Shown piece after piece: positions 19,079 through 42,459 of a DNA stretch of 64,000 nucleotides. A program made the position numbers and the translations under genes. The DNA lies in IMG/VR virus record IMGVR_UViG_3300021387_000074; one strand, 5' to 3'. How positions within the stretch are numbered: the first letter of the stretch is position 1; every line of letters begins with the position of its first letter. The stretch comes from a virus (Duplodnaviria > Heunggongvirae > Uroviricota > Caudoviricetes). The notes under the pieces were generated by a model. That model did not search any database. It was not told the origin of the DNA and was given only the letters and a program-made list of their open reading frames with translations.

Positions 19079-19082
19079 TAGC

Positions 19083-19337: not shown

Positions 19338-19519
19338 ATAATTGGCGGAGTGTATAACTCTTTTTTTCCTAAAAAATTTTAAATAGGAACACTCTTTGCC
19401 ATACGGAAGCGGCGAGTCCCGACCTCGCATTTCCCGAAGGAACCCAACTTAGCAGGCTGGTGGTTTTGCCAATTCACCCACACTTCCAAAAAGTGGGTTA
19501 GCACGTATCCACTTTATTG

Positions 19520-19650
19520 TTGACGTCATTTTAGGACTCGAACCTATTTGTGCTAACCCTAGCATTGTTATGTCTCCTCATAACAAAAGTGGACACAGGC
19601 AGCATCGAACTGCTTCTATTCCGCTGTGCAAGAGCGGCGAGATGCCAAAC
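19520..19650 (-). ncRNA. unresolved tRNA-like region with two T-arm motifs
   Basis: GGTTCGAGTCC and AGTTCGATGCTGC motifs, plus hairpin GTTATG-AGGAGA-CATAAC. No canonical cloverleaf could be assembled. Confidence 0.3.
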
Positions 19651-19837
19651 CTCCCCAGGCCCATAAAAAAGGTGTTCGGGTTTATCGTCGCAGACGTCAT
19701 ACGACTAGTTAGTTTTGTTCCGTTTGCACTCCTCGATGTTATTACTGCCGAGTGTAAACGTATCGGTTCAGTTTGCCCGAAAAGATCTAACATACTTCAT
19801 TAACCAAACGCCCCGAACTGTTACGCTTGGATTTAGT

Positions 19838-19910
19838 GGAGCGGGGGAGCATCGAACTCCCAACCTCATGATTGCAAATCACGTATTCTAGCCAATTGAA
19901 CTACCGTCCC
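19838..19910 (-). tRNA. tRNA-Ala (UGC)
   Basis: Anticodon loop UUUGCAA. G3:U70 identity pair present. T-arm GGGAG-TTCGATG-CTCCC. Confidence 0.7.
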
Positions 19911-20058
19911 ATAAATGGTCGGTGATTTTAAGGGCTCACCTTTTGTCAGCATATAACCTTCTGACGCATCCTCTCGGAAAATACCCAGGCAACGTACCTA
20001 CAGTATATGACTTGTAGGGGTTTTGTTCAACTTACTGAACCTGCCCAATAAAGCTTGC

Positions 20059-20145
20059 GGAGTATGCAAGACTCGAACTTGCGCCACGCTCATCGCATGT
20101 CAACGGTTTTCAAGACCGCCCGTATAGCCGCTAACTCAATACTCC
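20059..20145 (-). tRNA. tRNA-Ser (UGA), type II
   Basis: 87 nt. Acceptor GGAGTAT/ATACTCC. Anticodon loop CUUGAAA. Long variable arm. T-arm GCAAG-TTCGAGT-CTTGC. Confidence 0.65.
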
Positions 20146-20153
20146 ATAAAAGT

Positions 20154-20223
20154 CTGTATGGTAGGACTCGAACCTACGAAGCCTTGTTCCCAAAACAAGT
20201 GGATTAACCGCTCTCCCACACAC
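20154..20223 (-). tRNA. tRNA-Pro (UGG)
   Basis: Anticodon arm CTTGT-UUUGGGA-ACAAG. T-arm GTAGG-TTCGAGT-CCTAC. Confidence 0.65.
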
Positions 20224-20358
20224 AGATAAAAGTTGTTAGATCGCCGCGCAGCACAACCAAAGATTGTACATTAGTGTCCTTGCGGATTACCAATCTTCTT
20301 TATGGATATCTTTCGATAGGTCTTATCTAGGCACCCTTCCATAAATAAACAACTTAGC

Positions 20359-20428
20359 GGGCTAGGCAGGAATTGAACCTGCGTCCACGGATTAACAGTC
20401 CGCTGTATAACCATTTTACTACTAACCC
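20359..20428 (-). tRNA. tRNA-Asn (GUU)
   Basis: Anticodon arm GCGGA-CUGUUAA-TCCGT. T-arm GCAGG-TTCAATT-CCTGC. Confidence 0.6.
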
Positions 20429-20438
20429 AAATTTTAGT

Positions 20439-20522
20439 TGGCAGGGAGGGACTCGAACCCCCAACGTTTCTGATGTCACGGATTTACAGTCCGCTGCCTT
20501 CAGCCATTCGGCACACCTACCA
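20439..20522 (-). tRNA. tRNA-Tyr (GUA), type II
   Basis: 84 nt. D-arm TGCC-GAATGGCTGAA-GGCA. Anticodon loop CUGUAAA. Long variable arm. Confidence 0.65.
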
Positions 20523-20531
20523 ATAAGTAGC

Positions 20532-20603
20532 GGGATATGCGAGAATTGAACCCGCGCTCTCCTGAGTGACAGTCAGGCGTATGCACCATTTTACCAATAT
20601 CCC
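20532..20603 (-). tRNA. tRNA-Asp (GUC)
   Basis: Acceptor GGGATAT/ATATCCC. Anticodon arm CCTGA-CUGUCAC-TCAGG. Confidence 0.65.
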
Positions 20604-20613
20604 AAATGTTAGT

Positions 20614-20693
20614 CGGCTCGGAGAGACTCGAACTCTCACGTCAAAGACACATGATCCTAAGTCATGCGTGGCTGCCAATTACACCACGAGCCG
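20614..20693 (-). tRNA. tRNA-Leu (UAG), type II
   Basis: 80 nt. Acceptor CGGCTCG/CGAGCCG. Anticodon arm CATGA-CUUAGGA-TCATG. 13-nt variable arm. Confidence 0.65.
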
Positions 20694-20702
20694 AAAATAA
20701 AA

Positions 20703-20733
20703 AAGGCTTCTGATTTGTGTCAGAAGCCTTTAT
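20703..20733 (-). terminator. hairpin plus U-run upstream of the tRNA array (minus strand)
   Basis: The minus strand reads AAAGGCTTCTGACACAAATCAGAAGCCTTTTTTATTTTCGG. Confidence 0.5.
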
Positions 20734-20883
20734 ATAATAAACTCAGCTTCCGTCACGTTCTTGGATCATAGGCAGGTTCATACGATACGCCACTATTAAG
20801 TGTTGCAATAATGAGAGAATCTGCACTGTAATTATTCCAAGAATTTTTCATTTTGTTTTCCTTTTAATTTAACTTGTGACTAT

Positions 20884-20912
20884 ATTATAAAACACAAATT
20901 AATTTTTGTCAA
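20884..20912 (-). promoter_or_regulatory. sigma70-type promoter for the 20915..21682 gene
   Basis: The minus strand reads TTGACA, then 17 nt, then TATAAT (from + strand 'attataaaacacaaattaatttttgtcaag'). Confidence 0.55.
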
Positions 20913-20914
20913 GA

Positions 20915-21682
20915 TTACTTTCTTAATAAGAAAGCTCTCATCCATTTTTCAACGATTGTTTCTTCATTTTTTCTGAACCAATCGAGCAACTGTTTTTCGT
21001 TTTTGAAATCAAGCGGAATAATTCTACTTCTAAACAAAAACCCAAACAAATCCCAATTAGAAAGACTAAGAAAATAACTTTTTCGTTTCCACCAATGAGT
21101 TATCTCCCAACCTTCTTCGGGCTTATATTTTGGAGGATAAATCTCAGTAGTTATATACTTCTTTTCTTCTTTGCGTTTACCCGCAAATCCAGAATTCCAA
21201 GGCATATAAAAACCATAGTTTACTTTTTCTATAACTACTCTTTCAAGAACTATTGTATAAAGTGGCTTATCTTCATTATAAACCAAATCAACATAATCCT
21301 TATATTTTTCCCAAAGAGGGCGATGCTTAACACCATATCTATAATCTAGACCAAAAATTTCTTTTTCAAAATTTCTGCGGTATTCATCTTTGCCGCCCCA
21401 ATAGTAATTTCCCCCATCTGATGCCCAACCCCATTTATCAGCAAATCTCAAAGAATAATCAATGTTTTCGTTAATAAACTTTTCTTCAGGCTGAACACCA
21501 TCTTTTGTGCAAAGAAAACAACGATCATCATAAAGAACTTCTTTAATGATAGTACCTTCCATTTCTTTACACAATCTCCTATCCTTCTGTCTGCGTTCTT
21601 TGTGATACTGTTGGCGACACCATTTATCGCCTCTAGATTTGCAAATAGAATGATAAGGTTTTTTCTTAAAGCTTCTACTCAT
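20915..21682 (-). CDS. hypothetical protein (basic, Trp-rich)
   Basis: 255-aa ORF with promoter and RBS upstream. Confidence 0.5.
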   Translation of the reverse strand: MSRSFKKKPYHSICKSRGDKWCRQQYHKERRQKDRRLCKEMEGTIIKEVLYDDRCFLCTKDGVQPEEKFINENIDYSLRFADKWGWASDGGNYYWGGKDEYRRNFEKEIFGLDYRYGVKHRPLWEKYKDYVDLVYNEDKPLYTIVLERVVIEKVNYGFYMPWNSGFAGKRKEEKKYITTEIYPPKYKPEEGWEITHWWKRKSYFLSLSNWDLFGFLFRSRIIPLDFKNEKQLLDWFRKNEETIVEKWMRAFLLRK

Positions 21683-21800
21683 ATTTTTCTCCTAACTAAT
21701 TTAAGTTAGAATATTGTATACTTCATAAGAATCTCCTTTATTCTTTCTAGGAACGTGAAATAATCTTCACGCAAAATTTCCTCTTGCAACCTCGTTCTAC

Positions 21801-21860
21801 AGTCAGGACTCGAACCCGATCCAAAGACCATGCAGGTCTGTGTGCAACCGTTACACCTCT
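21801..21860 (-). ncRNA. degenerate tRNA-like fragment
   Basis: GGGTTCGAGTCC T-arm motif, but no matching 5' acceptor strand within 90 nt. Confidence 0.25.
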
Positions 21861-21866
21861 GAGATT

Positions 21867-21936
21867 TCTTCCGCGAGGACTCGAACCCAGCCTGCAAGAT
21901 CCAAATTCTTGAGTGCGACCGCTACACTACGGAAGA
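21867..21936 (-). tRNA. tRNA-Gln (UUG)
   Basis: Paralog of the Gln(CUG) gene. Acceptor TCTTCCG/CGGAAGA pairs perfectly. Anticodon arm CAAGA-AUUUGGA-TCTTG. Confidence 0.6.
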
Positions 21937-21946
21937 ATAAATTAGT

Positions 21947-22027
21947 CGGCAAGGTGGGATTCGAACCCACACGTCCGAAGACAACTGATTTTGAGCCAGC
22001 CAAGACTACCAATTCCATCACTCACCG
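21947..22027 (-). tRNA. tRNA-Leu (CAA), type II
   Basis: 81 nt. T-arm GTGGG-TTCGAAT-CCCAC. Anticodon loop CUCAAAA. Variable arm GTCTTCGGAC. Confidence 0.55.
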
Positions 22028-22267
22028 AAAAGAAGGGCGTTTAATACGCATTCTCTAATAATGCAGTTGCCCTTCGCCCAAGTATTTATAGTGCGTCGTG
22101 GCGATACACTTGAAAAGATTTTATGTTGTTCTTTTCATCAACATCAAAATTATAACACGAAGTCATAATTTTGTAAAGGGATGGGCTACCACCCAACCTC
22201 CACCACCTAGTTTCATTAATGTTTCTGAGAAGGAAGCTTCAAAAAACTAGGAAACAAATACCTTAGT

Positions 22268-22340
22268 GGAGCATATCGGAATTGAACCGATGTCCAAACA
22301 ACTTCTTATATTAAACACGTCTTTACAAGCTTAAGTCATT
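22268..22340 (-). ncRNA. tRNA 3'-half-like element (T-arm ATCGG-TTCAATT-CCGAT plus acceptor strand), no 5' partner found
   Basis: The + strand carries 'ggagcatatcggaattgaaccgatgtcc'. The 5' acceptor complement is absent from the following 300 nt. Confidence 0.25.
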
Positions 22341-22866
22341 TGCTTTTCGGTAAGTGCAAATAACAAAACTAATAGATTTTAATTTTCGTTGGTAAGCACT
22401 GAATCTCCAAAAGTTCAAACCAACTATCAGATGGTGACACTTAGACCGAAATATCTGAGTCATTCGCTAAGTGCTTACGCAACCATTGCGTAAGAATCTT
22501 CGAAATCTTCGTCGATTATTTTTTTGCTATATTAAGGTTAGCAACCTTTGCTTGATGTTTAATTCTTCCGTTGCTGTCGAAACCAAGAATGCCCCATAAG
22601 AATCATTGTCCATTTACCACTTGCGGACTACAAGGTAGCCAAGCCAGGCTCAACTTAAAGCTCTAATCTTAGGCTTTTGTTTTCGCTTGATGATTTATTA
22701 TACTACTTTTTTAACTTTTTGTCAAGGGTTGTTTTAGCGGTTTGGTAATCATCATAAAACTCATACTGTCCACCGTAGTGATAACAAACCAAATACTTTG
22801 TAGGAGTTCTCCACAATTCCCAAACACCCTTTTGTAATAAAAATTGCCATCCCATAAGATTAACTC

Positions 22867-23598: not shown

Positions 23599-24624
23599 TT
23601 ACTCCTTAAAATAAGTATTATAAACATAATCAGCGATGTCAGGGAAAACTTCTTTAATTTTTATCATTTTCTCTGCCTCTGAATAGTCAGCTCCAAGTCC
23701 GCCAAACACACTTTTAAGATTACCAACCTTCCTATCAAACTGTTTAAGTTTTCTATTAAAGTCAGCAATAGTTAAAGCTGTTGGTGGATTCTGTGTATCG
23801 AACACTTCGAACACATCATGGTTTACAGAATCACAAAGAATAACAATATCTTTGTCTTTGTTTGTAATTGCTTCATAGTCACCCATGCAACAATACTCTG
23901 TATGACCAACTACCTGCTTAGGGAAATAAGGTTCTTTTATTAAACTGTTTGGTCTAATCCATAAACAGAACTGAGAAACCTCATCGCCACTTCCACTAAA
24001 GCAACCATCCCAATCAAGTTTTTCCTCAAACCCATTTGAGAAGTTTTCATCGCCTGGAATATGACTTCTTTCATGCCAACACTTATTAAGTGTTTCAACA
24101 GAGAATAAATTCTGATCCCATTCTACAACATCTTTGTAGAGTTCTTTGAAGTAAGCGTCTGCTTCTTCTTTAGATTCAAACTCTGTTCTATCTGCTTTTG
24201 GATAAACAGTATAAATGTCTCCCATAATTTCTTTCATATAAGAAACGGCAGTCTTTGAAAAACCTGCGTGAGAGAACACCCAGCCATCACATTCAAAAGC
24301 AAGATCGATTATATCCATATTTGCCATAAGTAAGGCGCGGATAACACTTATTTTACTGTTTTGATGTCCACTACAATTTGAGCCATATCTTGAGCCACTA
24401 ACATAACTCCAATCATGGTTACCAATTAAAAGTATTACTTTATTAGGATACTTTCTTTTGAATCTACAGATCGTCTGAAAGTTCTCACCCTGGTCATCCC
24501 ATACATTTTCCCAAGCATCAAAATAGTCACCAAGGAAAACTACAAAATCAACCTCATCAATTTTCTTCTGGGCAATTTCCCAATTATGACTACCATGAAC
24601 ATCGGGAATTATTAAAATTTTCAT
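23599..24624 (-). CDS. calcineurin-like metallophosphoesterase (candidate RNA 2',3'-phosphatase of a repair module)
   Basis: 'IIPDVHG', 'FLGDYFD', 'GNHDW' motifs. The likely start MKIL overlaps the ligase stop as ATGA, with an AAGGA RBS upstream. Confidence 0.65.
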   Translation of the reverse strand: MKILIIPDVHGSHNWEIAQKKIDEVDFVVFLGDYFDAWENVWDDQGENFQTICRFKRKYPNKVILLIGNHDWSYVSGSRYGSNCSGHQNSKISVIRALLMANMDIIDLAFECDGWVFSHAGFSKTAVSYMKEIMGDIYTVYPKADRTEFESKEEADAYFKELYKDVVEWDQNLFSVETLNKCWHERSHIPGDENFSNGFEEKLDWDGCFSGSGDEVSQFCLWIRPNSLIKEPYFPKQVVGHTEYCCMGDYEAITNKDKDIVILCDSVNHDVFEVFDTQNPPTALTIADFNRKLKQFDRKVGNLKSVFGGLGADYSEAEKMIKIKEVFPDIADYVYNTYFKE

Positions 24625-25838
24625 TTTATCAAATCCTTGTATACTGAACAATACATTTCATAACCCTTAGACTTTTCTTTCCAAGAATCCCAAAGTTCAT
24701 TTAAGTATTCATTAGAATCCTTACCGTCTGCAGCCTTGAAATATATTGGTCTCAAAGATGGTGGAACCTGAGAAGTTACCCACAAAGCAAATTCTTTACG
24801 ATTTTTCTTGTAATCATTCTCCCAAACATCTTTTGCATAATCCATTGTAGAAATAAACTCTCTCTTAAAGACTTTAATTTCTGCAACCTGCTTATCTGTC
24901 TTTTCCTTCAACTCAGGGAAATCATCATGGCTTTCAGTAATGCACAAACGCCAAATACCTTCAGGGGTATCGTGGTCGCGAATATACTTCAAAGCCAAGT
25001 AAGAAGGACACTTCATTTTTACACGAGTCCAATTCTCTTCGTCTACTACAACAAAACCTTCCTGGTTTTTTCCGCTGAACTTTTCAAGTGCGGCGAGAAT
25101 ATCTTCCTTCTTCTTCAAGTCGTAATAATGTGGAGTGTCATAAGGCAAACCAAACATTTTTATTACTTCTCTTGGGTCGTGTTCAATACCTTCTGCATCA
25201 CGAGCACCATGGAACCAAAGTTTTGTTTCTGTATATTCGCAAATGATTTTATTCTGTGGCGAAGTAAGTTCAAACATTAAAGTCCAACCATCAGGAATTC
25301 TTGAAACCCAATCCATTTCACAATGGAAGTAGTTCTTATCTGCATCCCAAACAGTTGCGCCTGGAGCATCTTTTGTTAATGCTTTTGTCATCAATTCCTG
25401 ATAACAATGAACATCTTCTGTTTCATAATCAATTGGAGTATAAAGTCCAACACCACCATTTGTTACCCAATAATCTGCCCCTTTATATTTGAACATCTTA
25501 ATAAGCTGTCCATCTATTTTTTCGGGAACAAACAAAAATTTTGAATCCCAATTTATTGTATCAGCATGTCCGTCGTTGATGTCAAAGAATTTCAAATAAG
25601 GAGCACAAATAACATTTACAGTTCCATCTTCAAGAACTTCAACAACTGTTCCGCGGCACTGCTTAACAATTTTATCTGAAAGGTCAGATTCTATAAGATC
25701 ATAAACCAGCATCCACCAATTTGGATTGTTAGGAAACTGTGTTACAGAACGTAAGCAATAAGGCTTCTTCTTTAATTTGTCCTGCCAATTCTTTAGGTTC
25801 TTTCTAATAAAGTTCTCAAGTTCTTCAAAGTTTTTCAT
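24621..25838 (-). CDS. RNA ligase (Rnl1-like nucleotidyltransferase)
   Basis: Motif I 'EKIDGQL' (KxDG), motif IV 'EGFVVV', motif V 'RVKMK'. The likely start MKNFEEL has an AAGGAG RBS 8 nt upstream. Confidence 0.7.
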   Translation of the reverse strand: MKNFEELENFIRKNLKNWQDKLKKKPYCLRSVTQFPNNPNWWMLVYDLIESDLSDKIVKQCRGTVVEVLEDGTVNVICAPYLKFFDINDGHADTINWDSKFLFVPEKIDGQLIKMFKYKGADYWVTNGGVGLYTPIDYETEDVHCYQELMTKALTKDAPGATVWDADKNYFHCEMDWVSRIPDGWTLMFELTSPQNKIICEYTETKLWFHGARDAEGIEHDPREVIKMFGLPYDTPHYYDLKKKEDILAALEKFSGKNQEGFVVVDEENWTRVKMKCPSYLALKYIRDHDTPEGIWRLCITESHDDFPELKEKTDKQVAEIKVFKREFISTMDYAKDVWENDYKKNRKEFALWVTSQVPPSLRPIYFKAADGKDSNEYLNELWDSWKEKSKGYEMYCSVYKDLIK

Positions 25839-25856
25839 TGTTTTGCTCCTTATACT

Positions 25857-25915
25857 AAAATTATACCACGAAAGCAAAAAAAAGTAAAGCCCATCTACTG
25901 TTAGGTGGGCTTATT
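25857..25915 (-). terminator. conserved terminator-promoter cassette (copy 1)
   Basis: + strand reads 'aaaattataccacgaaagc-aaaaaaaagtaaagcccatctactgttaggtgggctt'. On the minus strand this is hairpin, then TTTACTTTTTTT, then TGGTATAAT. Confidence 0.6.
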
Positions 25916-26318: not shown

Positions 26319-26828
26319 CTAGATAATGTTACACTGGCAGCACTTCATAACGTCAAGTGCGGCTTTGTGTGTTTCAGGTGAGAGTCCTGCACAAGCATTT
26401 GCGATTACGTTTACTTCTACACCTTCAATCTGTTTAAGAGCGAGTGCGTTTGAAACAACACAAATGTCTGTACAAGTACCACACATTGTTACTTCATCAC
26501 CTGGCTGAACATATTCAGTCCATTTGTCTGAACCGAAATGTTCCTTTGGAAGAACGATTGCTTCATTAGCCAAATCCTGGAGATCTTCAATGATTCTCCA
26601 ACCGTCTGTACCTTCGATACAGTGTTCAACTGGCAGATGCTTTCCTTCTCCCGTTTTCATATAGTCATCGTAATGTGTATCAAGGGTGAAAATCAACTTT
26701 GCCCCATCAGCCAAAGCCTTTTCAGCTGCTTCCTTAATGTTAGGAATAATAGCAACAGCGGCATCGTTTTTTAATGCGCCTGTGAAAAAATCATTTTGAC
26801 AATCCACGATTACAAACCATTTAGTCAT
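26319..26828 (-). CDS. pncA: nicotinamidase/isochorismatase-family hydrolase (PncA-like)
   Basis: 'FVIVDCQNDFFTGAL' vs E. coli PncA 'LLVDLQNDFCAGGAL'. 'HCIEGTDGW' vs 'HCVQNSEGA'. 'TMCGTCTDICVVSNALALKQIEGVEVNVIANACAG' vs 'VMGLATDYCVKFTVLDALQLGYKVNVITDGCRG'. Confidence 0.75.
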   Translation of the reverse strand: MTKWFVIVDCQNDFFTGALKNDAAVAIIPNIKEAAEKALADGAKLIFTLDTHYDDYMKTGEGKHLPVEHCIEGTDGWRIIEDLQDLANEAIVLPKEHFGSDKWTEYVQPGDEVTMCGTCTDICVVSNALALKQIEGVEVNVIANACAGLSPETHKAALDVMKCCQCNII

Positions 26829-27453
26829 GCTTAGCCTCCATCAGACATTGTCTTAAAACAACATCTTTATATTTTTCTTTGTTTCTGTTTTTTCTACCCT
26901 GAAGGGCAGAATATGTTAATGTGTCTCCAACTATTGGATCCACACAAAGTTGCTTTCTTAAATCTTTTAAATTACTTGCTGACTTCTCGCAGTATTTTTT
27001 ATAAGTTTCATTGTTTTTTCTTTTTTTATTATATTCCTTAAAATAAGCAATAGAGTTTTCTCTGTTCTCTAATCTTTTTTGAGCAATTTGCTCTTTATGG
27101 TTTTCTCGATATCTTTTGCTAGTTGCTTTTTTAAGCATCTTTCTTTCCCATTCGCTTCTTACGCGATTTTTATTATAGCAACCACCAAGAGAAATATTAT
27201 AACCAAAATCTCTATCATATGAATGATAAAGTTTAATATAAAACATTTCTCTTTCATTAAGACTTTCCAAGCTGCATTCTTCCAAGACATAAAAAGAAAA
27301 GTTGTCGACTCCATAAGTTTCAAAGTCTTCTTTCAAAAACCTATTAGCATTTCCCCATTTCTCTGCTTGCCATCTTTTAGGAATGTCGTTAGATTGTCCT
27401 ATATAAACTTTACCGCTTACTTTGCTTTGAATACAATAAATACCACTAATCAT
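26821..27453 (-). mobile_element. GIY-YIG homing endonuclease gene (free-standing HEG)
   Basis: 'GIYCIQSKVSGKVYIGQS...R...E' GIY-YIG core with a basic C-terminal DNA-binding tail. Inserted between pncA and nadD. Confidence 0.7.
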
Positions 27454-27483
27454 ACAATTAACTTGTCATTCTGCGTATCAACA

Positions 27484-28077
27484 TTAGTATTTATAATTTT
27501 CAAGTTCATCTTCATAACCTTTACAGAACGAAAGGTCATCCATCATTTCGTCGAAGTCATCATAAATTTCCTTTCTGATTTCTTCGCGAAGCTTTGTTGA
27601 AGAAACATCAAGATCGATATCGCTTACATAATCATAAGCAATATCTTCAGGGAAATTATCTTCAAAACCTGGTCTACGGAAAACAATAAGTTTTGCTCTC
27701 TTGAGAATTTCTTCCCAATCACACCAAGTTTTGAATTTCTGAAAACTGTCAGAACCCATAGCGACGTAGTATTCATAGTCATCGAGAGATGACATAAATT
27801 TACCACTTGAAACTTTTCGCAGAGTATCTACGAAACGCCAACTGTCTCCAACATCTCTTTCAATGTCGGATACTTCTACGTTCTTAAAGCCAGCACAAAG
27901 CTGCTTTACTCTCTCGAACCTTTCGTTGAAGGAGAACATCTGAGTATTCTTCTTGTAATAACGAATGGTTGTAGGAACTACAATTACTTTATCAAACTTC
28001 TCAGACAGACGTTTAATAATTTCGATATGACCCTCATGACAAGGGTCAAAGCTTCCGCCATAGATTGCAATTCTCAT
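27484..28077 (-). CDS. nadD: nicotinate/nicotinamide mononucleotide adenylyltransferase (NadD/NMNAT-like)
   Basis: 'IAIYGGSFDPCHEGHIEI' matches the GGxFxPxHxGH nucleotidyltransferase motif. Size is 197 aa. Confidence 0.7.
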   Translation of the reverse strand: MRIAIYGGSFDPCHEGHIEIIKRLSEKFDKVIVVPTTIRYYKKNTQMFSFNERFERVKQLCAGFKNVEVSDIERDVGDSWRFVDTLRKVSSGKFMSSLDDYEYYVAMGSDSFQKFKTWCDWEEILKRAKLIVFRRPGFEDNFPEDIAYDYVSDIDLDVSSTKLREEIRKEIYDDFDEMMDDLSFCKGYEDELENYKY

Positions 28078-28137
28078 AATTACCCCTTAATCTTCTTGAT
28101 AATACAATTATACTACCAAGAAGAAGATTTGTAAAGA

Positions 28138-28503
28138 TTAGTAATCGCAGTCAAATACTGCTTTAATCTTAGAACTGTGGCAAAGACAGAAAGCGCCGTT
28201 CTCACCATTAGAGATCATCTGACAATCGTAATCATCAATTACAACTTTGTCTCCAATCTTGAATGCTGGGTCTTTTACTTTGTCGCCAATACTCTTAACA
28301 ACAAAATATTTTACGATGAGCTTTCCGCTTTTATTTGGATTGTTTACATTCTGTCCAGTAGCCTTTACTCCTGGCATAATCAAACCACTAGCAGTTTTTT
28401 CTACTTTTGATTCTGCAGGGACAGCTTCGCAAACTACCCATTCACCCATTGCTGTAATGTCTTTAATTGTTTTATCACTCATTGTTTTTTCTCCAATGAG
28501 CAA
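28138..28503 (-). CDS. GroES/Hsp10-like co-chaperonin
   Basis: Mobile-loop-like 'EKTASGLIMPG' and 'FKIGDKVVIDDY' resemble the GroES 'KSAGGIVLTGS' and 'VKVGDIVIF' segments. Confidence 0.45.
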   Translation of the reverse strand: MLIGEKTMSDKTIKDITAMGEWVVCEAVPAESKVEKTASGLIMPGVKATGQNVNNPNKSGKLIVKYFVVKSIGDKVKDPAFKIGDKVVIDDYDCQMISNGENGAFCLCHSSKIKAVFDCDY

Positions 28504-28520
28504 ATTATAACAATAGTATT

Positions 28521-28973
28521 TTAAATGTCAAGTGCTTCAAAGCCATTCTTTACTTCGCTTAAGTTACAGAACGCATTATCGAAGTCTTTTGAAACTGAAT
28601 CAACGATAAGCTGATAATCTGCATTTTCAATAGCGTTATTAAGAGAGTCCTGAACTGTTTCGAATTCGTCTACCACTTCCTTGAGATGTGTTACCATCTT
28701 ATCGACTTTACGAAGTTTGCTATTTGCATCTCCTAAATCGCTTTCGAGATCATCATAATCATTGCAACGACAATAATCATAAGGACAAGAGTTGCAGTCG
28801 ATTTCATCCTGGAGATTACAGTTTTCTACTTTGAGCTCTTTAATCTCTTCTTCAGGAGCAATTTTTGAAGTATTCCAACACTCTTCAAAGAGAGCCTTAT
28901 ATTCGTCGGGAATTTTCTTTTCTGACCTTGCGTTATGAATAGCAAACCACTGTTCAAATGTTGATGGAGCCAT
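28521..28973 (-). CDS. hypothetical protein (Cys-containing, acidic)
   Basis: 150-aa ORF. Confidence 0.45.
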   Translation of the reverse strand: MAPSTFEQWFAIHNARSEKKIPDEYKALFEECWNTSKIAPEEEIKELKVENCNLQDEIDCNSCPYDYCRCNDYDDLESDLGDANSKLRKVDKMVTHLKEVVDEFETVQDSLNNAIENADYQLIVDSVSKDFDNAFCNLSEVKNGFEALDI

Positions 28974-29275
28974 TAGAGCACCTCCCTAAAATCTTTTATA
29001 TACCGATTTTCTGCGGCGTAAATTTCTGTTTTAATTTTTATAGGTTCTTCTTCATTAGGAAACGCAAGAGCTTTTTTTTCTTCTTCACCTAAAATCTTAA
29101 AAACTAAAACCCAAACATTTTTAAATCTTGGGTCTTTAACTACCGCAACTTCAGTAATATGATTTGTATTAAAGCCAACCATGTTTACTTCATTCAGGTC
29201 AAAAGTTTCTGTTTCTTCTTCAAATGAATAAGAAGGTATATCAATAAACATAATTACCCCTGCAAATAATCCCAA
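28973..29275 (-). CDS. hypothetical protein
   Basis: 100-aa ORF. Confidence 0.4.
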   Translation of the reverse strand: MGLFAGVIMFIDIPSYSFEEETETFDLNEVNMVGFNTNHITEVAVVKDPRFKNVWVLVFKILGEEEKKALAFPNEEEPIKIKTEIYAAENRYIKDFREVL

Positions 29276-29490
29276 ATACTCTGACCAAGTTTGTCTTCGT
29301 CGGGAATTTCAATTTTGTCGGAATCAAAATGTTCAATAAGATGCCAAATAGCACTTACTGCGTCATTAAGATCTTCATAATCATTTTTTATTTTTTCAAT
29401 TTCTTTATCAAACTCTCCACGAGTTTCAGAATTGATAAATTCAACTTTAAGGAATTCGCTTTCCCAGCCCCAATCAGAATTACTTGCCAT
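29254..29490 (-). CDS. hypothetical protein
   Basis: 78-aa ORF. Confidence 0.4.
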   Translation of the reverse strand: MASNSDWGWESEFLKVEFINSETRGEFDKEIEKIKNDYEDLNDAVSAIWHLIEHFDSDKIEIPDEDKLGQSIWDYLQG

Positions 29491-29575
29491 TCTGAACCTC
29501 CATAAAAACTAAAATAGCATAAGATTTTCCATCTTACGCTATAATTATATCACGAGGACAAAATTTTGTAAATTA

Positions 29576-30367
29576 TTACAACCCGAAATTTATTTTCTTA
29601 AAATAATTTGGAAGCTCTGGGTCAAAATAAGGGATCTGAATAATTCTTATTTTATAAATTTGTTGATCATGAAGTTTTTTGATTTTATCAAAATGTTCAC
29701 CCTTAACTTCTGCACGAATAAACTCGTTTACTTCGTGATAAGTAAAGCCGAGTTTGTCTTCGTCAGAACTTCCACACATTCCATCAGAAGGTGTCTTATG
29801 GACAAGTTCTTTTGGCAACTCAAGATAATCACCAATAGCAATAACTTCTTCAGTTGTGAGTTTGCTGATTGGAGCAAAGTCGCCAGCAGAATCACCATAG
29901 AATGTAGAGAAGCCTACCATATCTTCAGAAAGATTACAAGTGTTTGCTACGCGGCAGTTGCCGATTGTTGCGGCTACACCATAGAGTGTGACCATTCTTA
30001 AACGAGCTGGGGTATTTGTCTTGTATTGATAAGTAGGGAACTCTTTTCCGTTCTCAGAAACAACGCGCATCTGTTCTGTGAGTCCTGAGTAAGCATTGCA
30101 AATGTTAATGCAATAACTCTTAATTCCAAGATGTTTAATAACAGCATCAGAGTCAGCAATATCTGACTGAACACCGTTAGGCATCTGAACACCGATAACA
30201 CGATCTTTGCCAAGTGCTTCAACGCAGAGTGCGGCTACAACAGATGAATCCTTTCCACCTGAAATACCAATTACCGCTTTTGTATTTTCATCACCGTTCA
30301 AAGAGAACCAGTTACGAATCCAATCAATACAATTCTGTGTGTGTTTAACAACATTAAAACCGCTCAT
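29576..30367 (-). CDS. nadE: NH3-dependent NAD+ synthetase
   Basis: PP-loop 'GISGGKDSS'. 'ARLRMVTLY'. 'GFSTFYGDSAGDFAPISKLTTEEV...HKTPSDGM', typical of NadE. Confidence 0.85.
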   Translation of the reverse strand: MSGFNVVKHTQNCIDWIRNWFSLNGDENTKAVIGISGGKDSSVVAALCVEALGKDRVIGVQMPNGVQSDIADSDAVIKHLGIKSYCINICNAYSGLTEQMRVVSENGKEFPTYQYKTNTPARLRMVTLYGVAATIGNCRVANTCNLSEDMVGFSTFYGDSAGDFAPISKLTTEEVIAIGDYLELPKELVHKTPSDGMCGSSDEDKLGFTYHEVNEFIRAEVKGEHFDKIKKLHDQQIYKIRIIQIPYFDPELPNYFKKINFGL

Positions 30368-30606
30368 TATATTTCCTCCAACTCAAAGTTATAAAGTGAT
30401 TTTCTGATATTACCAACATACCCGCTAAATTCAAATTTGTGTCCATCATCTTCATAAGAGATGTTAAGACCGTTCCAAGGATGCATTTGAATTGTGAGTA
30501 TATCTCCTTCGTTAAGTCTTTCAAAGTTTCCCGAAATCTTTGCTTTCTTTCGTTCAACTACTCTGTACTTCTTTATGAAATTGTCTAAAACCTCATCTCC
30601 ACTCAT
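30367..30606 (-). CDS. hypothetical protein
   Basis: 79-aa ORF. Confidence 0.4.
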   Translation of the reverse strand: MSGDEVLDNFIKKYRVVERKKAKISGNFERLNEGDILTIQMHPWNGLNISYEDDGHKFEFSGYVGNIRKSLYNFELEEI

Positions 30607-31193
30607 TAAATACCTCCGAGGTTTAATAATTTACTTTTGTATTCTGCCCAAGCATGCTTCATCATAATAGAAGTGTCGGAAGAACTCATTATGTTTTCAA
30701 CCTGAGAGTCTGAACGATAGCGTACTTCAATAAATTCATTTTCATCGAGTTTCTGCTGCTGCCTACAAGAGCCTTCTACTTCTATATAATAACAAGTCAT
30801 TTTATTATCCATAAAAGCAGGGTTAGGATTTGATTCATAAAGTTTTCTTATTTGAAGGATTTTATTTTTATCCAGCCCAATCTCTTCTTCGCATTCGCGA
30901 AGAATAGCATCAAGTGGGCTTTCACCTTCTTCAACCATTCCGCAAGGAAATTCTTCCATTACTTTATCTACACCGTGGCGATACTGAGCAGTCATTACAA
31001 ACCTTTCGTTGTAATCTGCGCAAGTTCTTGTAACAATTGCAGATACCCAGTTTGGTGCTTTTATTTTTACATAAGTACCATTCTTTCCATTTGGTGCTTT
31101 TTTATTTTCATTCACAACATCAAAGATTGGTGTGTGCAGCATTGTCTGAGGATCGTTCCAAGATTCAAATTTTAATTTACTATCGTCTGCCAT
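30606..31193 (-). CDS. Nudix hydrolase (candidate ADP-ribose/NAD-related pyrophosphatase)
   Basis: Nudix box 'GMVEEGESPLDAILRECEEEIGL' (GX5EX7REUXEEXGU). Confidence 0.75.
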   Translation of the reverse strand: MADDSKLKFESWNDPQTMLHTPIFDVVNENKKAPNGKNGTYVKIKAPNWVSAIVTRTCADYNERFVMTAQYRHGVDKVMEEFPCGMVEEGESPLDAILRECEEEIGLDKNKILQIRKLYESNPNPAFMDNKMTCYYIEVEGSCRQQQKLDENEFIEVRYRSDSQVENIMSSSDTSIMMKHAWAEYKSKLLNLGGI

Positions 31194-31201
31194 ATTTTCT
31201 C

Positions 31202-31621
31202 CTAAAAATGATCTACATATTGCGGATTTATTTCTCCAAGTCTTTTGTTTATTTCTTTTATAAATTTATCAATAAATTCTTCATCTTCATTTTCGTTTTT
31301 AATGCTAAATGCATAAGGGTTCTCGTCGTTGATAAACCAAACATGGACTTTTATTCTGTCATTTTCTGTTGCGTAGTCGACTTTCACTATTGTTTCTATG
31401 TTTATATAAATTTTAGTGTGATCACCACTTAATCCAAGAAATTGCTTAGTATTCTCATTCTCAAATAAAGCTATAAGTTCATCTCTTGAGATAAAATCAA
31501 AATCGACATAACTTAATTCTTTACTACCTATTGTGGTATAATCGAATTCTTTTTCTTCTATACTTATATAAGCAACATTTTTAATATTTAAGTAAGTGTC
31601 TTCTTTAATTTTTACTAGCAT
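31202..31621 (-). CDS. hypothetical protein
   Basis: 139-aa ORF. Confidence 0.45.
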   Translation of the reverse strand: MLVKIKEDTYLNIKNVAYISIEEKEFDYTTIGSKELSYVDFDFISRDELIALFENENTKQFLGLSGDHTKIYINIETIVKVDYATENDRIKVHVWFINDENPYAFSIKNENEDEEFIDKFIKEINKRLGEINPQYVDHF

Positions 31622-31637
31622 TTCTTACCCCACGCAA

Positions 31638-31695
31638 AAATTATACCATAAAAGCGAAAAAAAGTAAAGCCCACCAAATAGGTGGGCTGTTAAAG
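31638..31695 (-). terminator. conserved terminator-promoter cassette (copy 2)
   Basis: + strand reads 'aaaaattataccataaaagcgaaaaaaagtaaagcccaccaaataggtgggct'. Confidence 0.6.
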
Positions 31696-31706
31696 CAGCT
31701 GCTTAA

Positions 31707-32867
31707 TTAAACAGTTGCTCCATATTTTCTTGCAAATTTAGCACTGTCTCTACTCTTGATTTCAGCACCAATGATTTCCATATCTTCTTCATGGAGGTCG
31801 TCATCAAAGTTTTGTTCTTCTGCAGTTATTTCATCTGCGGTAAGATTATTTGTAAGATAGCTGCTGATTTCAGCATCTTCGTCAATACTGTATCTGAAGT
31901 GCTCAGGTACACCGAGATTCATCAAACGTTCTCTTTCTTCTGACTTCTTACACTTGAGAGAAGCCCATCTACCATCAATCATACAATCTCGCTGACAACA
32001 ATCGTGATAAACGATAGTTTCACTATTCTTAAACTTGATGAAGATGCTTACATTAAAGTTTTCTTCTTCTTCGGCTTCAACATTGAAGTAAGTGATTGCT
32101 TCACTTGGAGTCATATCTGGGAAGTTGTTAAGTTCTTCAACGAATGAAGAAAGAATATCCATAGATACGAACTTCTTACTACCAAGAGTTTTTACAATAT
32201 CTTCTGTGAGTTCTTTTCTTACGAGATTATCAGCGCAGTATGCTCTTACAACATTTGCATTTTCTGAAGTAAATTTGTAGTGATAGCGAATACGTCCTGG
32301 TCTTGATTTCAAGTTTTCATCAAGCTTCCAAACGTTATTTACTGTGAGCAAGAACAAGTTGCCAGCGCAGCCGCTGTTTCCATCCAATACAGAGAGAAGT
32401 GTTTCCTGCTTTGTCTGGTCATCTTCATTATCGCCACCATTGGCATTACCGCCCATAAACTTTTCAAATTCATCCATAAAGATGACACAATCTTTTATGT
32501 TCATAAGGAAGTCAGGCAGTCCTGGCAAAAATTCAGAAACAACAACAATTGGCTTCTTTCCGTTAAGCTGCTCCATTACAAGACGAGCAGTAAGTGTCTT
32601 TCCAAGTCCTTTGTCACCTGACAAAAGAACACCAAGGTTTTTGTCGGCTTTGTTCTTGCCATAAGCTTCTACAATATGGCTTGCAACATTTTGAGAATTT
32701 CCATAAATCTTTCCGTGAGAAAGTTTTACTTCTGTTTCTTCCAAATAACAGCCGATGAATTTGTTAAAACAAACCTTCCAAGTTCCCATCGGGACTTCTT
32801 TTCCAAATGTCAAATCAGATTCTTCTGCGTCAAAGAATCTAACCATGTTTTCAGTTCTTAACCACAT
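31707..32867 (-). CDS. AAA-family ATPase of unknown function
   Basis: Walker A 'GDKGLGKT', Walker B 'VIFMDEFEKF'. Confidence 0.6.
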   Translation of the reverse strand: MWLRTENMVRFFDAEESDLTFGKEVPMGTWKVCFNKFIGCYLEETEVKLSHGKIYGNSQNVASHIVEAYGKNKADKNLGVLLSGDKGLGKTLTARLVMEQLNGKKPIVVVSEFLPGLPDFLMNIKDCVIFMDEFEKFMGGNANGGDNEDDQTKQETLLSVLDGNSGCAGNLFLLTVNNVWKLDENLKSRPGRIRYHYKFTSENANVVRAYCADNLVRKELTEDIVKTLGSKKFVSMDILSSFVEELNNFPDMTPSEAITYFNVEAEEEENFNVSIFIKFKNSETIVYHDCCQRDCMIDGRWASLKCKKSEERERLMNLGVPEHFRYSIDEDAEISSYLTNNLTADEITAEEQNFDDDLHEEDMEIIGAEIKSRDSAKFARKYGATV

Positions 32868-32880
32868 ATCTTTTTACCTC

Positions 32881-32940
32881 ACTACAAAAATTATAACATG
32901 TTTCCATAAAAAAGTAAAGCCCACCAAATTGATGGGCTGT
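32881..32940 (-). terminator. conserved terminator-promoter cassette (copy 3)
   Basis: + strand reads 'aaaaattataacatgtttccataaaaaagtaaagcccaccaaattgatgggct'. Confidence 0.55.
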
Positions 32941-32943
32941 TGA

Positions 32944-33237
32944 TTATTTATTAAAACTTTCTACAAAGACGGGATGCGTTATAATCTGTTCAATTACTGC
33001 ATCTCTATCTTCCTTTTTTGGAAAATAATAAACCTCAAGGCTTGTATCATTACCGTCAAATCTTTCGATACCTAAGCAATAATACTCAGTGCGTTCATCC
33101 ATATAAAAGTTATTATCTTCATCTTCTTTGTAAGAAGACATTTTTACAATGCTTTTGATTGGAATATAATATTCCATATCTCCGAACTTATAACTGTTAT
33201 CTTCATCTTCCAAACAATTAGTTAATTTTATAAACAT
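32944..33237 (-). CDS. hypothetical protein
   Basis: 97-aa ORF. Confidence 0.4.
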   Translation of the reverse strand: MFIKLTNCLEDEDNSYKFGDMEYYIPIKSIVKMSSYKEDEDNNFYMDERTEYYCLGIERFDGNDTSLEVYYFPKKEDRDAVIEQIITHPVFVESFNK

Positions 33238-33238
33238 A

Positions 33239-34480
33239 TTATTTTCCTGACTGAATTCTCCAATTGAGAGTTCTGCGGAGGAAGTCTACAAACTGCTGGC
33301 TGCGGCTCATTGTCTTGCTTGCATCGTCTGAAAGTTTTGCAACATCCAAACCATTTACAAGAACAACTTTTGCTACAATGTTAAGCGGTTTGATTGTCTG
33401 TGGACCACTCCACCAAGTTCCAATACCAAAGGCTGGCTTAGCGCCGAGTTCTTTTGTATACTTACACAAATCACCCCAAAGTTTGAAGCTGTCGATAGAA
33501 TTACTAAACAACAGTGTCTTTGTATGTGGGTCAATCTTGAGAGATTTATAATGTTCTACCCAATTCTTTGCCCATTCAAATGGATCACCTGAGTCGTTTC
33601 TTACTCCACCAAACAAAGTAGCGTAAGTGAGTGTCATATCTCTGCGGCAGAGTTCATCACCGATTGTATCGGTAAGCCAAATGCCGTTCAAGATACCATA
33701 TTCCTTAATCCAAGCATCCATAGCAATCTTGTTAGAGTAAGCAGGGTTATACATAAGGTTACCCTGTCCAACAGATTCAATAAATTCGTGAGCACAAGTT
33801 CCAACTGGTGTGAGACCATACTTCATAGCAAGCAGAACATTTGATGTTCCAATAAAACCTGCAAATCTGCTCTGAGTCTTTTTGCATTCTGCAAAGCGAC
33901 TGATAAGCCAATCCTGTGCTTCAAAAGACAAGCGGCGACGAGCACCAAATTCTGACCAAACACCTGTGTCAAAATCACCATAAATAACTTCATGGATTTT
34001 CTTTTCATTTTCTTCCTTGAAACCTTTCAAGAGTTCATCATAATCGTAGTGATTACGATAATAAACTTCTGCACAAATTTCAAGAACTGGAATTTCGTAA
34101 TAACTTACATATTCCTGGACTCCGCCAAAAGAAATACTCAAGCCACTTTCTGCATCATTTGAGATTGTGAAATCTTCAAATACTGGATGCCAAAAACGCA
34201 AGAAGTTAATGTAATCATTGTGAATCCAAGGACACTTAGTTCTGAGATAATTAAGTTCCTCTTCTGTGAATCTTAAATTACAGTAAGACTTAATCTGTGC
34301 TGTAATTTCCAAAATATCTTCTTTGGTGTAAGGCTCGTGGTCTTTCTCGATACCAACATTTCGGGCGCGGAAATCCCAAGTTGCCTTCATGTTTCCAAAC
34401 TGATGATGATAACACTGACCCATACTGAACTTGTATAAGTCAGTATCTAACAAAGATTTTACAATCGGCTCATATTTCAT
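33239..34480 (-). CDS. pncB: nicotinate phosphoribosyltransferase
   Basis: 'SLLDTDLYKFSM', 'GARRRLSF', 'IGTSNV', 'GTCAHEF', 'RNDSGDP', 'AFGIGT', 'KPLNIVAKVVLVNGLDVAKLSD' all parallel the E. coli PncB blocks. Confidence 0.85.
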   Translation of the reverse strand: MKYEPIVKSLLDTDLYKFSMGQCYHHQFGNMKATWDFRARNVGIEKDHEPYTKEDILEITAQIKSYCNLRFTEEELNYLRTKCPWIHNDYINFLRFWHPVFEDFTISNDAESGLSISFGGVQEYVSYYEIPVLEICAEVYYRNHYDYDELLKGFKEENEKKIHEVIYGDFDTGVWSEFGARRRLSFEAQDWLISRFAECKKTQSRFAGFIGTSNVLLAMKYGLTPVGTCAHEFIESVGQGNLMYNPAYSNKIAMDAWIKEYGILNGIWLTDTIGDELCRRDMTLTYATLFGGVRNDSGDPFEWAKNWVEHYKSLKIDPHTKTLLFSNSIDSFKLWGDLCKYTKELGAKPAFGIGTWWSGPQTIKPLNIVAKVVLVNGLDVAKLSDDASKTMSRSQQFVDFLRRTLNWRIQSGK

Positions 34481-34539
34481 AAAAAAATACTCCTTTGTTT
34501 TGTTTTCTTAATTATAAACCAAAAACGATTTTTTGTAAA

Positions 34540-40954: not shown

Positions 40955-41178
40955 TGCCCTACCTCCCTCCAGCCACGCTGTTTTATTACGTCTTTAACCG
41001 CATCAATTGCGGCATTTAATTTTGCCTTCATCTCTTTAAGATCTGAGGCACCAACTTCAATTCCGTAATAGCATAAACCGCTAGTGTTTCTATGAAATTC
41101 TACTCGATAGTTAATCTCGTTTGGAACATCGCTGAAGCTTTCAACTTCTTGTGGAGCAGATTGAACCTTCCCTCTCAT
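40951..41178 (-). CDS. hypothetical protein
   Basis: 75-aa ORF whose stop overlaps the next start. Confidence 0.4.
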   Translation of the reverse strand: MRGKVQSAPQEVESFSDVPNEINYRVEFHRNTSGLCYYGIEVGASDLKEMKAKLNAAIDAVKDVIKQRGWREVGQ

Positions 41179-41678
41179 TAAACCTCCTTTACGGAGATAG
41201 TAATGTTAGGAAATTCTTTTGCCCAGCCCTTGCGGTATTCTTCAAGATTGCTCATAAGTGCTTTGAAGTTTTCAAGCATATTATCTGAAACTTCAGCTGG
41301 AACATTCGAACGGTCTACACCATTTTCAATATCCGCTTTAATTCTTCCCTTACACAAATCATTGTCGTAACTATCTTTGAAGATAAGGATTGTTACATCC
41401 TGCTTATACAAAGCAGCAATTTCAAGAACGGCGCGGATTGATGAGTTATGGAGTGATGTAGCATCAAACCAAATCTCTTCTCTTTCTTCTGAGCAGAATT
41501 CTCTCAAAGAAGCATACGCCATTTCCCAAACTTTTTTATTTCTTGATTGATCGTTTACGTTTCCGCAAATCTGTTTCCTGATTGTGTCAGGGTTTATATA
41601 AAACGGAGTCTCTCCGCAATTATTTTTGTAATAAGTTGATTTACCTGAACCAGGCACCCCTACAGTTAATCTAACCAT
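41178..41678 (-). CDS. P-loop kinase (nucleotide/nucleoside-kinase family; polynucleotide 5'-kinase-like)
   Basis: 'GVPGSGKST' P-loop and 'INPDTIR' parallel the T4 Pnkp kinase 'GCPGSGKST' and 'INRDDYR'. Size is 166 aa. Confidence 0.65.
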   Translation of the reverse strand: MVRLTVGVPGSGKSTYYKNNCGETPFYINPDTIRKQICGNVNDQSRNKKVWEMAYASLREFCSEEREEIWFDATSLHNSSIRAVLEIAALYKQDVTILIFKDSYDNDLCKGRIKADIENGVDRSNVPAEVSDNMLENFKALMSNLEEYRKGWAKEFPNITISVKEV

Positions 41679-42452: not shown

Positions 42453-42459
42453 AAATAGT

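Follow-up and report, generated by a model that had tools for sequence, protein, structure and literature searches.

Bacterial immunity commonly ends in the depletion of nicotinamide adenine dinucleotide (NAD+). Three routes by which phages rebuild NAD+ have been reported so far: NARP1 and NARP2 (Osterman et al. 2024) and NARP3 (2026), all presented as countermeasures to NAD+-depleting defences. NARP1 phosphorylates ADP-ribose (ADPR) to ADPR-PP and joins nicotinamide directly to the product, while NARP3, a PnuC-like transporter with a NadR-like enzyme, imports external nicotinamide riboside (Sci Adv 2026, PMC13464706). Li et al. (2024, Microbiome, PMC11662467) described 174 animal-gut 'NAD-jumbo phages' with complete salvage or Preiss-Handler pathways. 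They reported a pncB-nadD-nadE cluster, for example in Kuafu_71, mentioned phage-encoded pncA, and put forward counter-defence against NAD+ depletion as a hypothesis; NAD supply was also proposed, with NAD-dependent ligases and other NAD consumers occurring in NAD-jumbo phages. Here we analyzed a stretch of 64,000 nt from the virus record IMGVR_UViG_3300021387_000074 (hereafter the window), in which five genes, all on the minus strand, encode PncA, PncB, NadD, NadE and a Nudix hydrolase. The gene set and the counter-defence idea are already in print, and the window is a further example of the published class.

Searches with Pfam and NCBIfam upheld the identities that a preliminary description of this DNA had given to the five genes, each of which lies where it had been placed:

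26319..26828, minus strand: PncA, short nicotinamidase, 169 amino acids (Pfam Isochorismatase, 2.2e-27)
27484..28077, minus strand: NadD-type nicotinate mononucleotide (NaMN) adenylyltransferase, 197 amino acids (Pfam CTP_transf_like, 2.6e-22)
29576..30367, minus strand: NadE, single-domain NH3-dependent NAD+ synthetase, 263 amino acids (Pfam NAD_synthase, 1.6e-46)
30606..31193, minus strand: Nudix hydrolase of the ADP-ribose/ADP-sugar pyrophosphatase type, 195 amino acids (Pfam NUDIX, 5.8e-14)
33239..34480, minus strand: PncB, nicotinate phosphoribosyltransferase (NAPRTase), 413 amino acids (Pfam NAPRTase_N, 4e-21, and NAPRTase, 5.3e-48)

We favor, with moderate confidence, the reading that this region is an NAD+ recycling module of the phage, which rebuilds NAD+ from the products of NADases and whose main benefit would be survival of NAD+-depleting immunity. 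Nicotinamide and ADPR, the two products of NAD+ glycohydrolysis, would both be taken up and rebuilt to NAD+. PncA would convert nicotinamide to nicotinate and NH3, PncB would combine nicotinate with phosphoribosyl pyrophosphate (PRPP), with ATP, to give NaMN, NadD would use ATP to turn NaMN into nicotinate adenine dinucleotide (NaAD), and NadE would consume ATP and free ammonia to amidate NaAD to NAD+. The Nudix hydrolase would split ADPR into AMP and ribose-5-phosphate, both of which the host may return to ATP and PRPP. The succession from nicotinamide through nicotinate, NaMN and NaAD to NAD+, as already laid out in the preliminary description, holds at the level of sequence and predicted fold, from which the substrate specificities are likewise predicted. 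The NAD+ pool would thereby be upheld through a long jumbo-phage infection, and the strong selective benefit would most likely be survival of abortive-infection systems that deplete NAD+ (TIR, SIR2, SEFIR and similar NADases). Such a counter-defence benefit is plausible because PncA and the predicted ADPR hydrolase would act on the two NADase products.

Gene sets were counted at 85 viral or metagenomic loci with iterative profile hidden Markov models made from their homologs, and conservation was followed over 32 to 87 homologs per protein. No loss-of-function substitution was seen at the catalytic residues of any enzyme on these alignments, and the active-site residues are essentially invariant though the homologs span 50-96% identity. 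PncA is closest in the PDB to the nicotinamidases 1ILW/1IM5 of Pyrococcus horikoshii (1.2e-13), and to 3S2S and 3O90 of Streptococcus mutans and S. pneumoniae. It is a short form and not of the type of E. coli PncA, with which it had been called collinear; against the E. coli-type equivalog NF008623, a model of the longer enterobacterial form, it scores 24.6 bits (cutoff 174). The PDB alignments place the catalytic triad at D9/K95/C123 and the metal ligands at D50/H52/H69; the six residues are kept in 65-66 of 66 homologs, and the metal ligands in all 66. It is by this Asp/His/His metal site that nicotinamidases differ from other isochorismatase-like hydrolases. D9 and C123 are the counterparts of D10 and C133, and D50/H52/H69 those of D52/H54/H71, in P. 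horikoshii PncA (1IM5), and K95 is that of K103 in the S. pneumoniae nicotinamidase.

PncB scores 311.6 against the NAPRTase equivalog TIGR01514 (cutoff 269.55), and its closest PDB entry is the NAPRTase 1YIR (2e-55). Its GTCAHE motif occupies residues 227-232; H231 of this GTxAHE signature, invariant in the PncB alignment and kept in 86/87 homologs, is presumably the phospho-histidine of the ATP-coupled phosphorylation. For the adenylyltransferase, the seven best NCBIfam matches are all NadD models, ranked over CoaD and NadR/NadM, with a score of 100 against the equivalog TIGR00482 that is slightly below the cutoff of 112.45; the closest structures are the NadD entries 1YUL and 5DB4, from Pseudomonas and mycobacteria. 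The motifs quoted earlier for NadD and NadE (GGSFDPCHEGH, SGGKDS and RLRM) are all present. In NadD, GGSFDPCHEGH spans residues 7-17, with the HxGH histidines H14 and H17 (HEGH, 14-17), and SSTKLR follows at 159-164. Among 70 homologs, S159 is kept in all, and H17 and R164 in 69 each. NadE exceeds the TIGR00552 cutoff (150.4 vs 63.65) and has no glutaminase domain. It carries SGGKDS at 36-41, the SGGxDS signature being kept in 81/81 homologs, and RLRM at 122-125.

The fifth protein contains the canonical Nudix box (Gx5Ex7REUxEExGU) that had been reported for it, GMVEEGESPLDAILRECEEEIGL at residues 85-107, and the box residues are kept in 30-32 of 32 homologs. Its closest PDB sequences are ADPR pyrophosphatases, NudF and NudE, while it stays below the curated NCBIfam cut-offs (30 vs 79.55 for TIGR00052 and 45.2 vs 169 for the NudE model NF008736). 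An AlphaFold2 model (mean confidence, pLDDT, 91.8) was compared with known structures by Foldseek. The top match was 5C7T, the ADPR-bound nucleoside diphosphate sugar hydrolase of Bdellovibrio (TM-score 0.77 normalised to the query and 0.83 to the target), and further matches included T. thermophilus Ndx2, the M. tuberculosis ADPR pyrophosphatase (ADPRase), human NUDT5 and E. coli NudE. The predicted two-domain ADPRase fold, an N-terminal beta domain followed by the Nudix domain, is shared with 5C7T, 2YVM, 5I8U, NUDT5 and 1VHG over 185-200 columns at TM-scores of 0.64-0.83. The earlier suggestion that this protein could process ADPR agrees with its resemblance to ADPR pyrophosphatases in both sequence and predicted fold, and a catalytic ADPRase is the best reading.

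NrtR, a Nudix-like transcriptional repressor, is a frequent member of bacterial NAD operons. The Nudix homologs found near PncB fall into two classes: a short one of ~190-200 amino acids with the canonical box and 80-98 residues beyond it, and a long one of 250-325 amino acids with ~170-190 residues beyond the box, which carries the NrtR winged-helix domain PF21906 (loci L120, L127, L037 and L014 of our comparison). The window protein, with a NUDIX domain only and 88 residues after the box, belongs to the short class; an NrtR regulator was ruled out, since the winged helix PF21906 is absent and the catalytic box is intact. A short, box-intact Nudix protein beside PncB or NadE recurs in 22 loci. 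As a separate observation, NrtR (Nudix plus NrtR_WHD) lies upstream of PncA in some IMG/VR loci (L014, 6041-7465; L018, 7930-9384; L035/L037/L039), and in L014 NrtR is followed by a cytidylyltransferase-like (NadD-like) domain within a single frame of 474 amino acids.

The module is arranged as three units on one strand, PncB-ORF97, ORF139-Nudix-ORF79-NadE and NadD-GIY-YIG-PncA, between which lie an AAA ATPase, a GroES-like gene and several unknown open reading frames (ORFs) with signals of their own. Signals and further genes of the region are as follows:

34511..34539, minus strand: sigma-70-like promoter, TTTACA-17-TATAAT (11/12), 31 nt upstream of the PncB start
32944..33237, minus strand: ORF97, starting 2 nt past the PncB stop, without PHROG match
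32890-32938, minus strand: hairpin-promoter cassette preceding the AAA ATPase, near-identical to that at 31640..31688
31707..32867, minus strand: AAA ATPase (phrog_2376; Pfam AAA, 3.4e-14), with its own hairpin and promoter, not assigned to the pathway
31640..31688, minus strand: terminator-like hairpin AGCCCACCTATTTGGTGGGCT, then extended -10 promoter TTTACT-17-TGgTATAAT, opening the ORF139-Nudix-ORF79-NadE unit
31202..31621, minus strand: ORF139, first gene of that unit, followed by the Nudix gene after an 8-nt gap with the ribosome-binding site AGGAG
30367..30606, minus strand: ORF79, with TAATG overlaps at the Nudix stop and the NadE start
28138-28503: Cpn10 (GroES-like), weak (Pfam, 2.7e-5)
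28107..28135, minus strand: sigma-70-like promoter, TTTACA-17-TATAAT (11/12), 30 nt upstream of the NadD start
26821..27453, minus strand: GIY-YIG homing endonuclease between NadD and PncA (Pfam GIY-YIG, 1.1e-8)

The junctions Nudix/ORF79 and ORF79/NadE both read GGAGG...TAATG, GGAGG being the ribosome-binding site. Such translational coupling to NadE directly supports assigning the Nudix gene to the pathway. ORF97 is probably co-transcribed with PncB, and its position suggests that it is part of the module. The hairpins of the two cassettes (31668-31688 and 32918-32938) have the form AGCCCAyC.ATTTGGTGGGCT followed by a T-run, each fused to an extended -10 promoter, and the pair looks like a repeated terminator-promoter cassette dividing transcription units. 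As had been noted before, the NAD genes are interleaved with a GIY-YIG gene, a GroES-like gene and an AAA ATPase, which Pfam confirmed (weakly for Cpn10). The GIY-YIG gene is a mobile element and not a pathway enzyme; it is missing in the closest relative, L001 (IMGVR_UViG_3300032030_000136; 15716-16892), where NadD and PncA adjoin. The NAD clusters of L002, L037, L040, L054 and L072 are likewise broken by GIY-YIG genes. A homolog of the AAA ATPase is found near PncB in few loci only (L001/L006, L007, L043, L050, L074 and L083).

Over the window, near-consensus sigma-70 promoters, mostly TTGACA-17-TGnTATAAT, number 27 on the coding strand and 1 on the other, with ~1.2 expected by chance. As many as 24/27 fall in the intergenic 20% of the window (for example 45084-45112, 28504-28531, 12736-12764 and 9392-9420), and Shine-Dalgarno-like motifs precede 56% of ORFs against a background of 7%. 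The module would be expressed from these host-type promoters. Bacteroidota are not known to use either sigma-70-type promoters of this kind or Shine-Dalgarno signals. The promoters and Shine-Dalgarno-like motifs of the window therefore argue against a Bacteroidota host, and Firmicutes or Spirochaetes would fit. Bacteroidota are the host assigned to many NAD-jumbo phages, including the Kuafu clade (Li et al. 2024, PMC11662467).

Positions 20606-41193 of the window are 100% identical to the ENA scaffold SHIW14-1_SAMN02144230 scaffold_35 (233,198 bp), which is present also in run SRR873601, and positions 1-21009 are identical to a second metagenome contig; we take the SHIW14-1_SAMN02144230 and SRR873601 accessions to be, probably, sheep-rumen metagenomes. 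Because of the complete identity to a 233 kb scaffold, the phage of the window is a jumbo phage. The window runs ~19 kb past the scaffold end, which gives a genome of more than ~250 kb if the window is contiguous. With more than 200 kb of genome and a complete Preiss-Handler pathway, PncB, NadD and NadE all being encoded, the phage falls within the definition of NAD-jumbo phages (genome >200 kb plus a complete salvage or Preiss-Handler pathway).

Among 50,697 phage records, megablast with the 8-kb region gave no match, and relatives were found there at the protein level only. A scan of IMG/VR with a PncB alignment gave at least 275 viral contigs with PncB relatives. At the 85 loci, PncA was found in 65, NadD in 65, NadE in 80 and Nudix in 31; 59 of the loci have all four enzymes, most commonly in the order PncA-PncB-NadD-NadE (37 loci). 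Many of the contigs with this order are ~155-162 kb long, and in one of them (L059) Pfam gave PncA-DUF5662-PncB-NadD-NadE. The 265-kb contig L002 has PncA-NadE-GIY-PncB-NadD-Nudix and the 394-kb contig L004 has PncB-Nudix-PncA-NadE back to back, both with a short Nudix, and the human-faecal phage scaffold MT835470 of GenBank has PncA-PncB-NadE-NadD-Nudix within ~5.5 kb. In the 735-kb phage LR756501, PncB, NadE, NadD-like and PncA-like genes lie inside 9 kb. The claim of the preliminary description that no such four-enzyme set had been described in a phage therefore fails, given PncB relatives on at least 275 contigs, the 59/85 loci, MT835470 and the report of Li et al. (2024, PMC11662467).

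The gene set may also be present, as a whole, in a cultured phage. In the Agrobacterium jumbo phage Atu_ph07 (L171), genes annotated as hypothetical match the PncA and NadD profiles (2.2e-15 and 5.4e-14) and adjoin an annotated ADP-ribose pyrophosphatase at a distance of 3 kb from PncB (7362-9151 and 11881-13260); a partial NadE-like match, annotated as NAD synthetase, lies elsewhere in the genome. With PncA-like, NadD-like, ADPRase, PncB and NadE-like genes, Atu_ph07 is a possible cultured experimental model. Identity to the closest relative L001 is mosaic, PncA (96%), PncB (96%) and Rnl (91%) being far more alike than NadD (75%), Nudix (63%), NadE (58%) and AAA (56%), which suggests that the middle of the cluster was exchanged by recombination. 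In L176 (Phage Phass-1, OQ749652.1; human gut, 'code 15 clade' at NCBI), genes for a nicotinamidase, a Prs-like, a Nampt-like, a hypothetical and a NadE-like protein stand in a row at 8004-12442 beside a large tRNA array; this locus seems to combine NARP1-like with deamidating enzymes.

The closest cellular PncBs, at ~50% identity, are those of Lachnospiraceae and Treponema. At 41/80 loci of bacterial genomes, PncB stands alone. A bacterial origin of the IMG/VR loci of ~50% identity was rejected, their gene context being clearly unlike that of bacterial loci: within 10 kb of PncB, viral loci have a CCA-adding enzyme in 25/85 cases, an AAA_33 kinase in 30/85 and RlaP in 12/85, and bacterial loci in 1/80, 1/80 and 0/80, respectively. 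The PncB and NadE matches of 'Acinetobacter phage MD-2021a' (L172, CAKLQH020000008.1) were discarded, as they lie on bacterial chromosome, with glmS, glmU, ribH, nusB and phoBR around pncB.

Several observations speak for a recycling module with a counter-defence role. The gene set is kept through rearrangement in divergent huge-phage contigs; the module has strong host-type promoters; and, by analogy, the other NAD+-rebuilding routes, NARP1-3, are reported to counter such defences. The nearby RNA-repair genes would be a second candidate counter-defence function. Other points weigh on the opposite side. No feature of the sequence separates counter-defence from plain NAD+ supply, and Lachnospiraceae have these enzymes in ordinary salvage operons under NrtR control, so that the phage copy may be a captured housekeeping operon. 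The route would cost PRPP and ~3 ATP per NAD+ and must outrun a fast NADase, and the window yielded no PRPP synthetase. PncA and NadD both score below their NCBIfam equivalog cut-offs, and the structure closest to NadE (3FIU) is presumably that of Francisella, whose NadE homolog is a nicotinamide mononucleotide (NMN) synthetase.

The module may instead provide general metabolic augmentation, supplying NAD+ for a long jumbo-phage cycle or in a host of poor salvage capacity, with no specific link to NADase immunity. We consider this less likely. It was proposed by Li et al. (2024, PMC11662467), together with the NAD consumers of NAD-jumbo phages, and it agrees with the nearness to ordinary bacterial salvage enzymes (PncB ~50% identical to those of Lachnospiraceae and Treponema, with similar Butyrivibrio operons), with the NrtR regulator kept in some phage loci and with a window in which we found no known anti-defence gene. 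However, retention of PncA and of the predicted ADPRase points to recycling of cleavage products rather than vitamin uptake, and no NAD-consuming enzyme was found among the larger ORFs (~100 amino acids up) of the window. Searched for in the same set, Nampt, NadR, PnuC, NadM, Prs, Sir2, macro domain, ADP-ribosyltransferase and NAD-dependent ligase gave nothing. Augmentation and counter-defence are not mutually exclusive.

Two further alternatives concern single steps, and both appear improbable. In the first, the end product is the same and the last two steps run as in Francisella: NadE would make NMN from NaMN, and the adenylyltransferase would then turn NMN into NAD+. NadE belongs to a short, ~250-residue branch, and its top PDB match is 3FIU (1.4e-29), which we take to be the Francisella enzyme; 2E18 is nearly as good, both being single-domain NH3-dependent NAD synthetases. 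In Francisella, the NadE homolog works as an NMN synthetase and its activity as an NAD synthetase is marginal; this switch was accompanied by NadM in place of NadD (PMC3376133). The phage adenylyltransferase, in contrast, is NadD-type, its top matches all being NadD, and the short archaeal NadE of M. jannaschii showed no NMN synthetase activity (PMC3376133). Because the partner enzyme is NadD-type, the canonical order, NaMN to NaAD by NadD and then to NAD+ by NadE, is favored and would apply here.

In the second alternative, also held at low probability, the Nudix protein would not recycle ADPR; it would destroy ADPR-derived immune signals (cyclic or conjugated ADPR of the Thoeris type), hydrolyse NADH or dinucleotide polyphosphates, or remove NAD caps from RNA. 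The fold alone does not give a substrate range, and the best NCBIfam match is NudE, 'ADP compounds hydrolase' (7.3e-12), a broad-specificity enzyme. Yet the top matches in sequence and fold are all ADPR or ADP-sugar pyrophosphatases, the gene is translationally coupled to NadE, and the short box-intact forms adjoin PncB or NadE in those 22 loci; moreover, a fusion of a Nudix ADPRase with an NMN adenylyltransferase (NMNAT) is known from phage NAD salvage (KVP40 NatV, NARP2). A recently captured host operon that is functionless in the phage is highly improbable, since, despite the homing endonucleases and unrelated ORFs that interrupt the cluster, its active sites are invariant over homologs of 50-96% identity, the set has been retained through many rearrangements, and the genes have strong promoters and ribosome-binding sites of their own.

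The surroundings of the module were also annotated. The window contains ~30 tRNAs and a tmRNA, its genes are packed on one strand and its ORFs are mostly unannotatable. A set of RNA-repair genes is found near the NAD genes:

23599-25877 and 41178-41678: T4 Rnl1-type RNA ligase, adjacent metallophosphoesterase and AAA_33 kinase

The ligase, metallophosphoesterase and kinase are likely a tRNA-repair set beside the NAD module. An array of 23 tRNAs followed by the tmRNA (tag peptide DEDFEDSYAMVA) occupies 16569-22595 on the coding strand, and other tRNAs are scattered at 42370-48913 and 61600-61670. Among the latter are two with abnormal anticodon loops and a tRNA-Cys of anticodon ACA. A GGDEF-domain protein (337 amino acids) is encoded at 9996-11009; a homolog, 27% identical and with a faint match to the Cas10 palm domain, adjoins the Nudix gene of the 265-kb relative L002 (13490-14614). 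A nucleotide cyclase that acts in signalling or anti-defence is conceivable here. Another GIY-YIG endonuclease, the second of the window (54780-55268), adjoins a radical-SAM-like protein that is under the Pfam cut-off (55279-56172).

Tentatively, and with less confidence than in the recycling reading itself, we suggest that the deamidated four-enzyme route together with an ADPR pyrophosphatase is a fourth, mechanistically distinct NAD+ reconstitution pathway, which would overcome TIR, SIR2 and SEFIR NADases and is widespread in gut and rumen phages. If so, the classical four-step route is a countermeasure shared by a large group of gut and rumen phages, most of them uncultured, and anti-defence annotation based on NARP1-3 would probably overlook them. 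The text of the two NARP papers, when searched, gave no mention of PncA, PncB or NadE, and no test of the deamidated route against NADase defences was found in the literature searched.

Compared with the known systems, the module is like NARP1-3 in outcome and a member of none: the families of NARP1 (Adps and Namat), NARP2 (Nampt and NMNAT) and NARP3 (PnuC and NadR) are all absent among the larger ORFs of the window. As in NARP1, nicotinamide and ADPR would both be reused. Unlike in NARP1, the predicted fate of ADPR is cleavage to AMP and ribose-5-phosphate, nicotinamide would enter the classical pathway, and the window yielded neither a Prs-like nor a Nampt-like gene. It differs from NARP3 in that intracellular nicotinamide would be used, with neither transporter nor NadR. 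The NadV/NatV pair of Vibrio phage KVP40 consists of a Nampt and a bifunctional NMNAT-Nudix protein. With this pair and with NARP2 the module shares the input of nicotinamide and PRPP, the output of NAD+ and a Nudix of the ADPR-pyrophosphatase type. NARP2, however, is a two-step amidated route via NMN, whereas the window module would be a four-step deamidated route via nicotinate, NaMN and NaAD that needs NadE and ammonia; moreover, the window gave no Nampt, PncB scores above the cutoff of the NAPRTase equivalog, and the Nudix is a separate gene and not a fusion.

Bacterial NrtR operons (Butyrivibrio hungatei, L134; Lachnospiraceae, L120 and L127) have the same four enzymes, with PncB ~50% identical, and the Butyrivibrio order NrtR-PncA-NadD-PncB-NadE is similar to that of the phages. 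Their Nudix partner is a regulator with the NrtR winged helix, whereas that of the phage is a short, box-intact hydrolase, and the viral context of tRNA array, RNA repair genes and homing endonucleases is unlike theirs. The nearest likeness is to the NAD-jumbo phages of Li et al., with which the phage shares a probable animal-gut origin, a genome of >200 kb, clustered pncB/nadD/nadE and a complete Preiss-Handler route. Whereas their treatment is at the annotation level, in a text without the word 'Nudix', the window adds residue checks, a coupled Nudix of the ADPRase type, a map of promoters and operons and the distinction from NrtR; and unlike the Kuafu clade with its assigned Bacteroidota host, it carries promoters and Shine-Dalgarno signals that argue against such a host.

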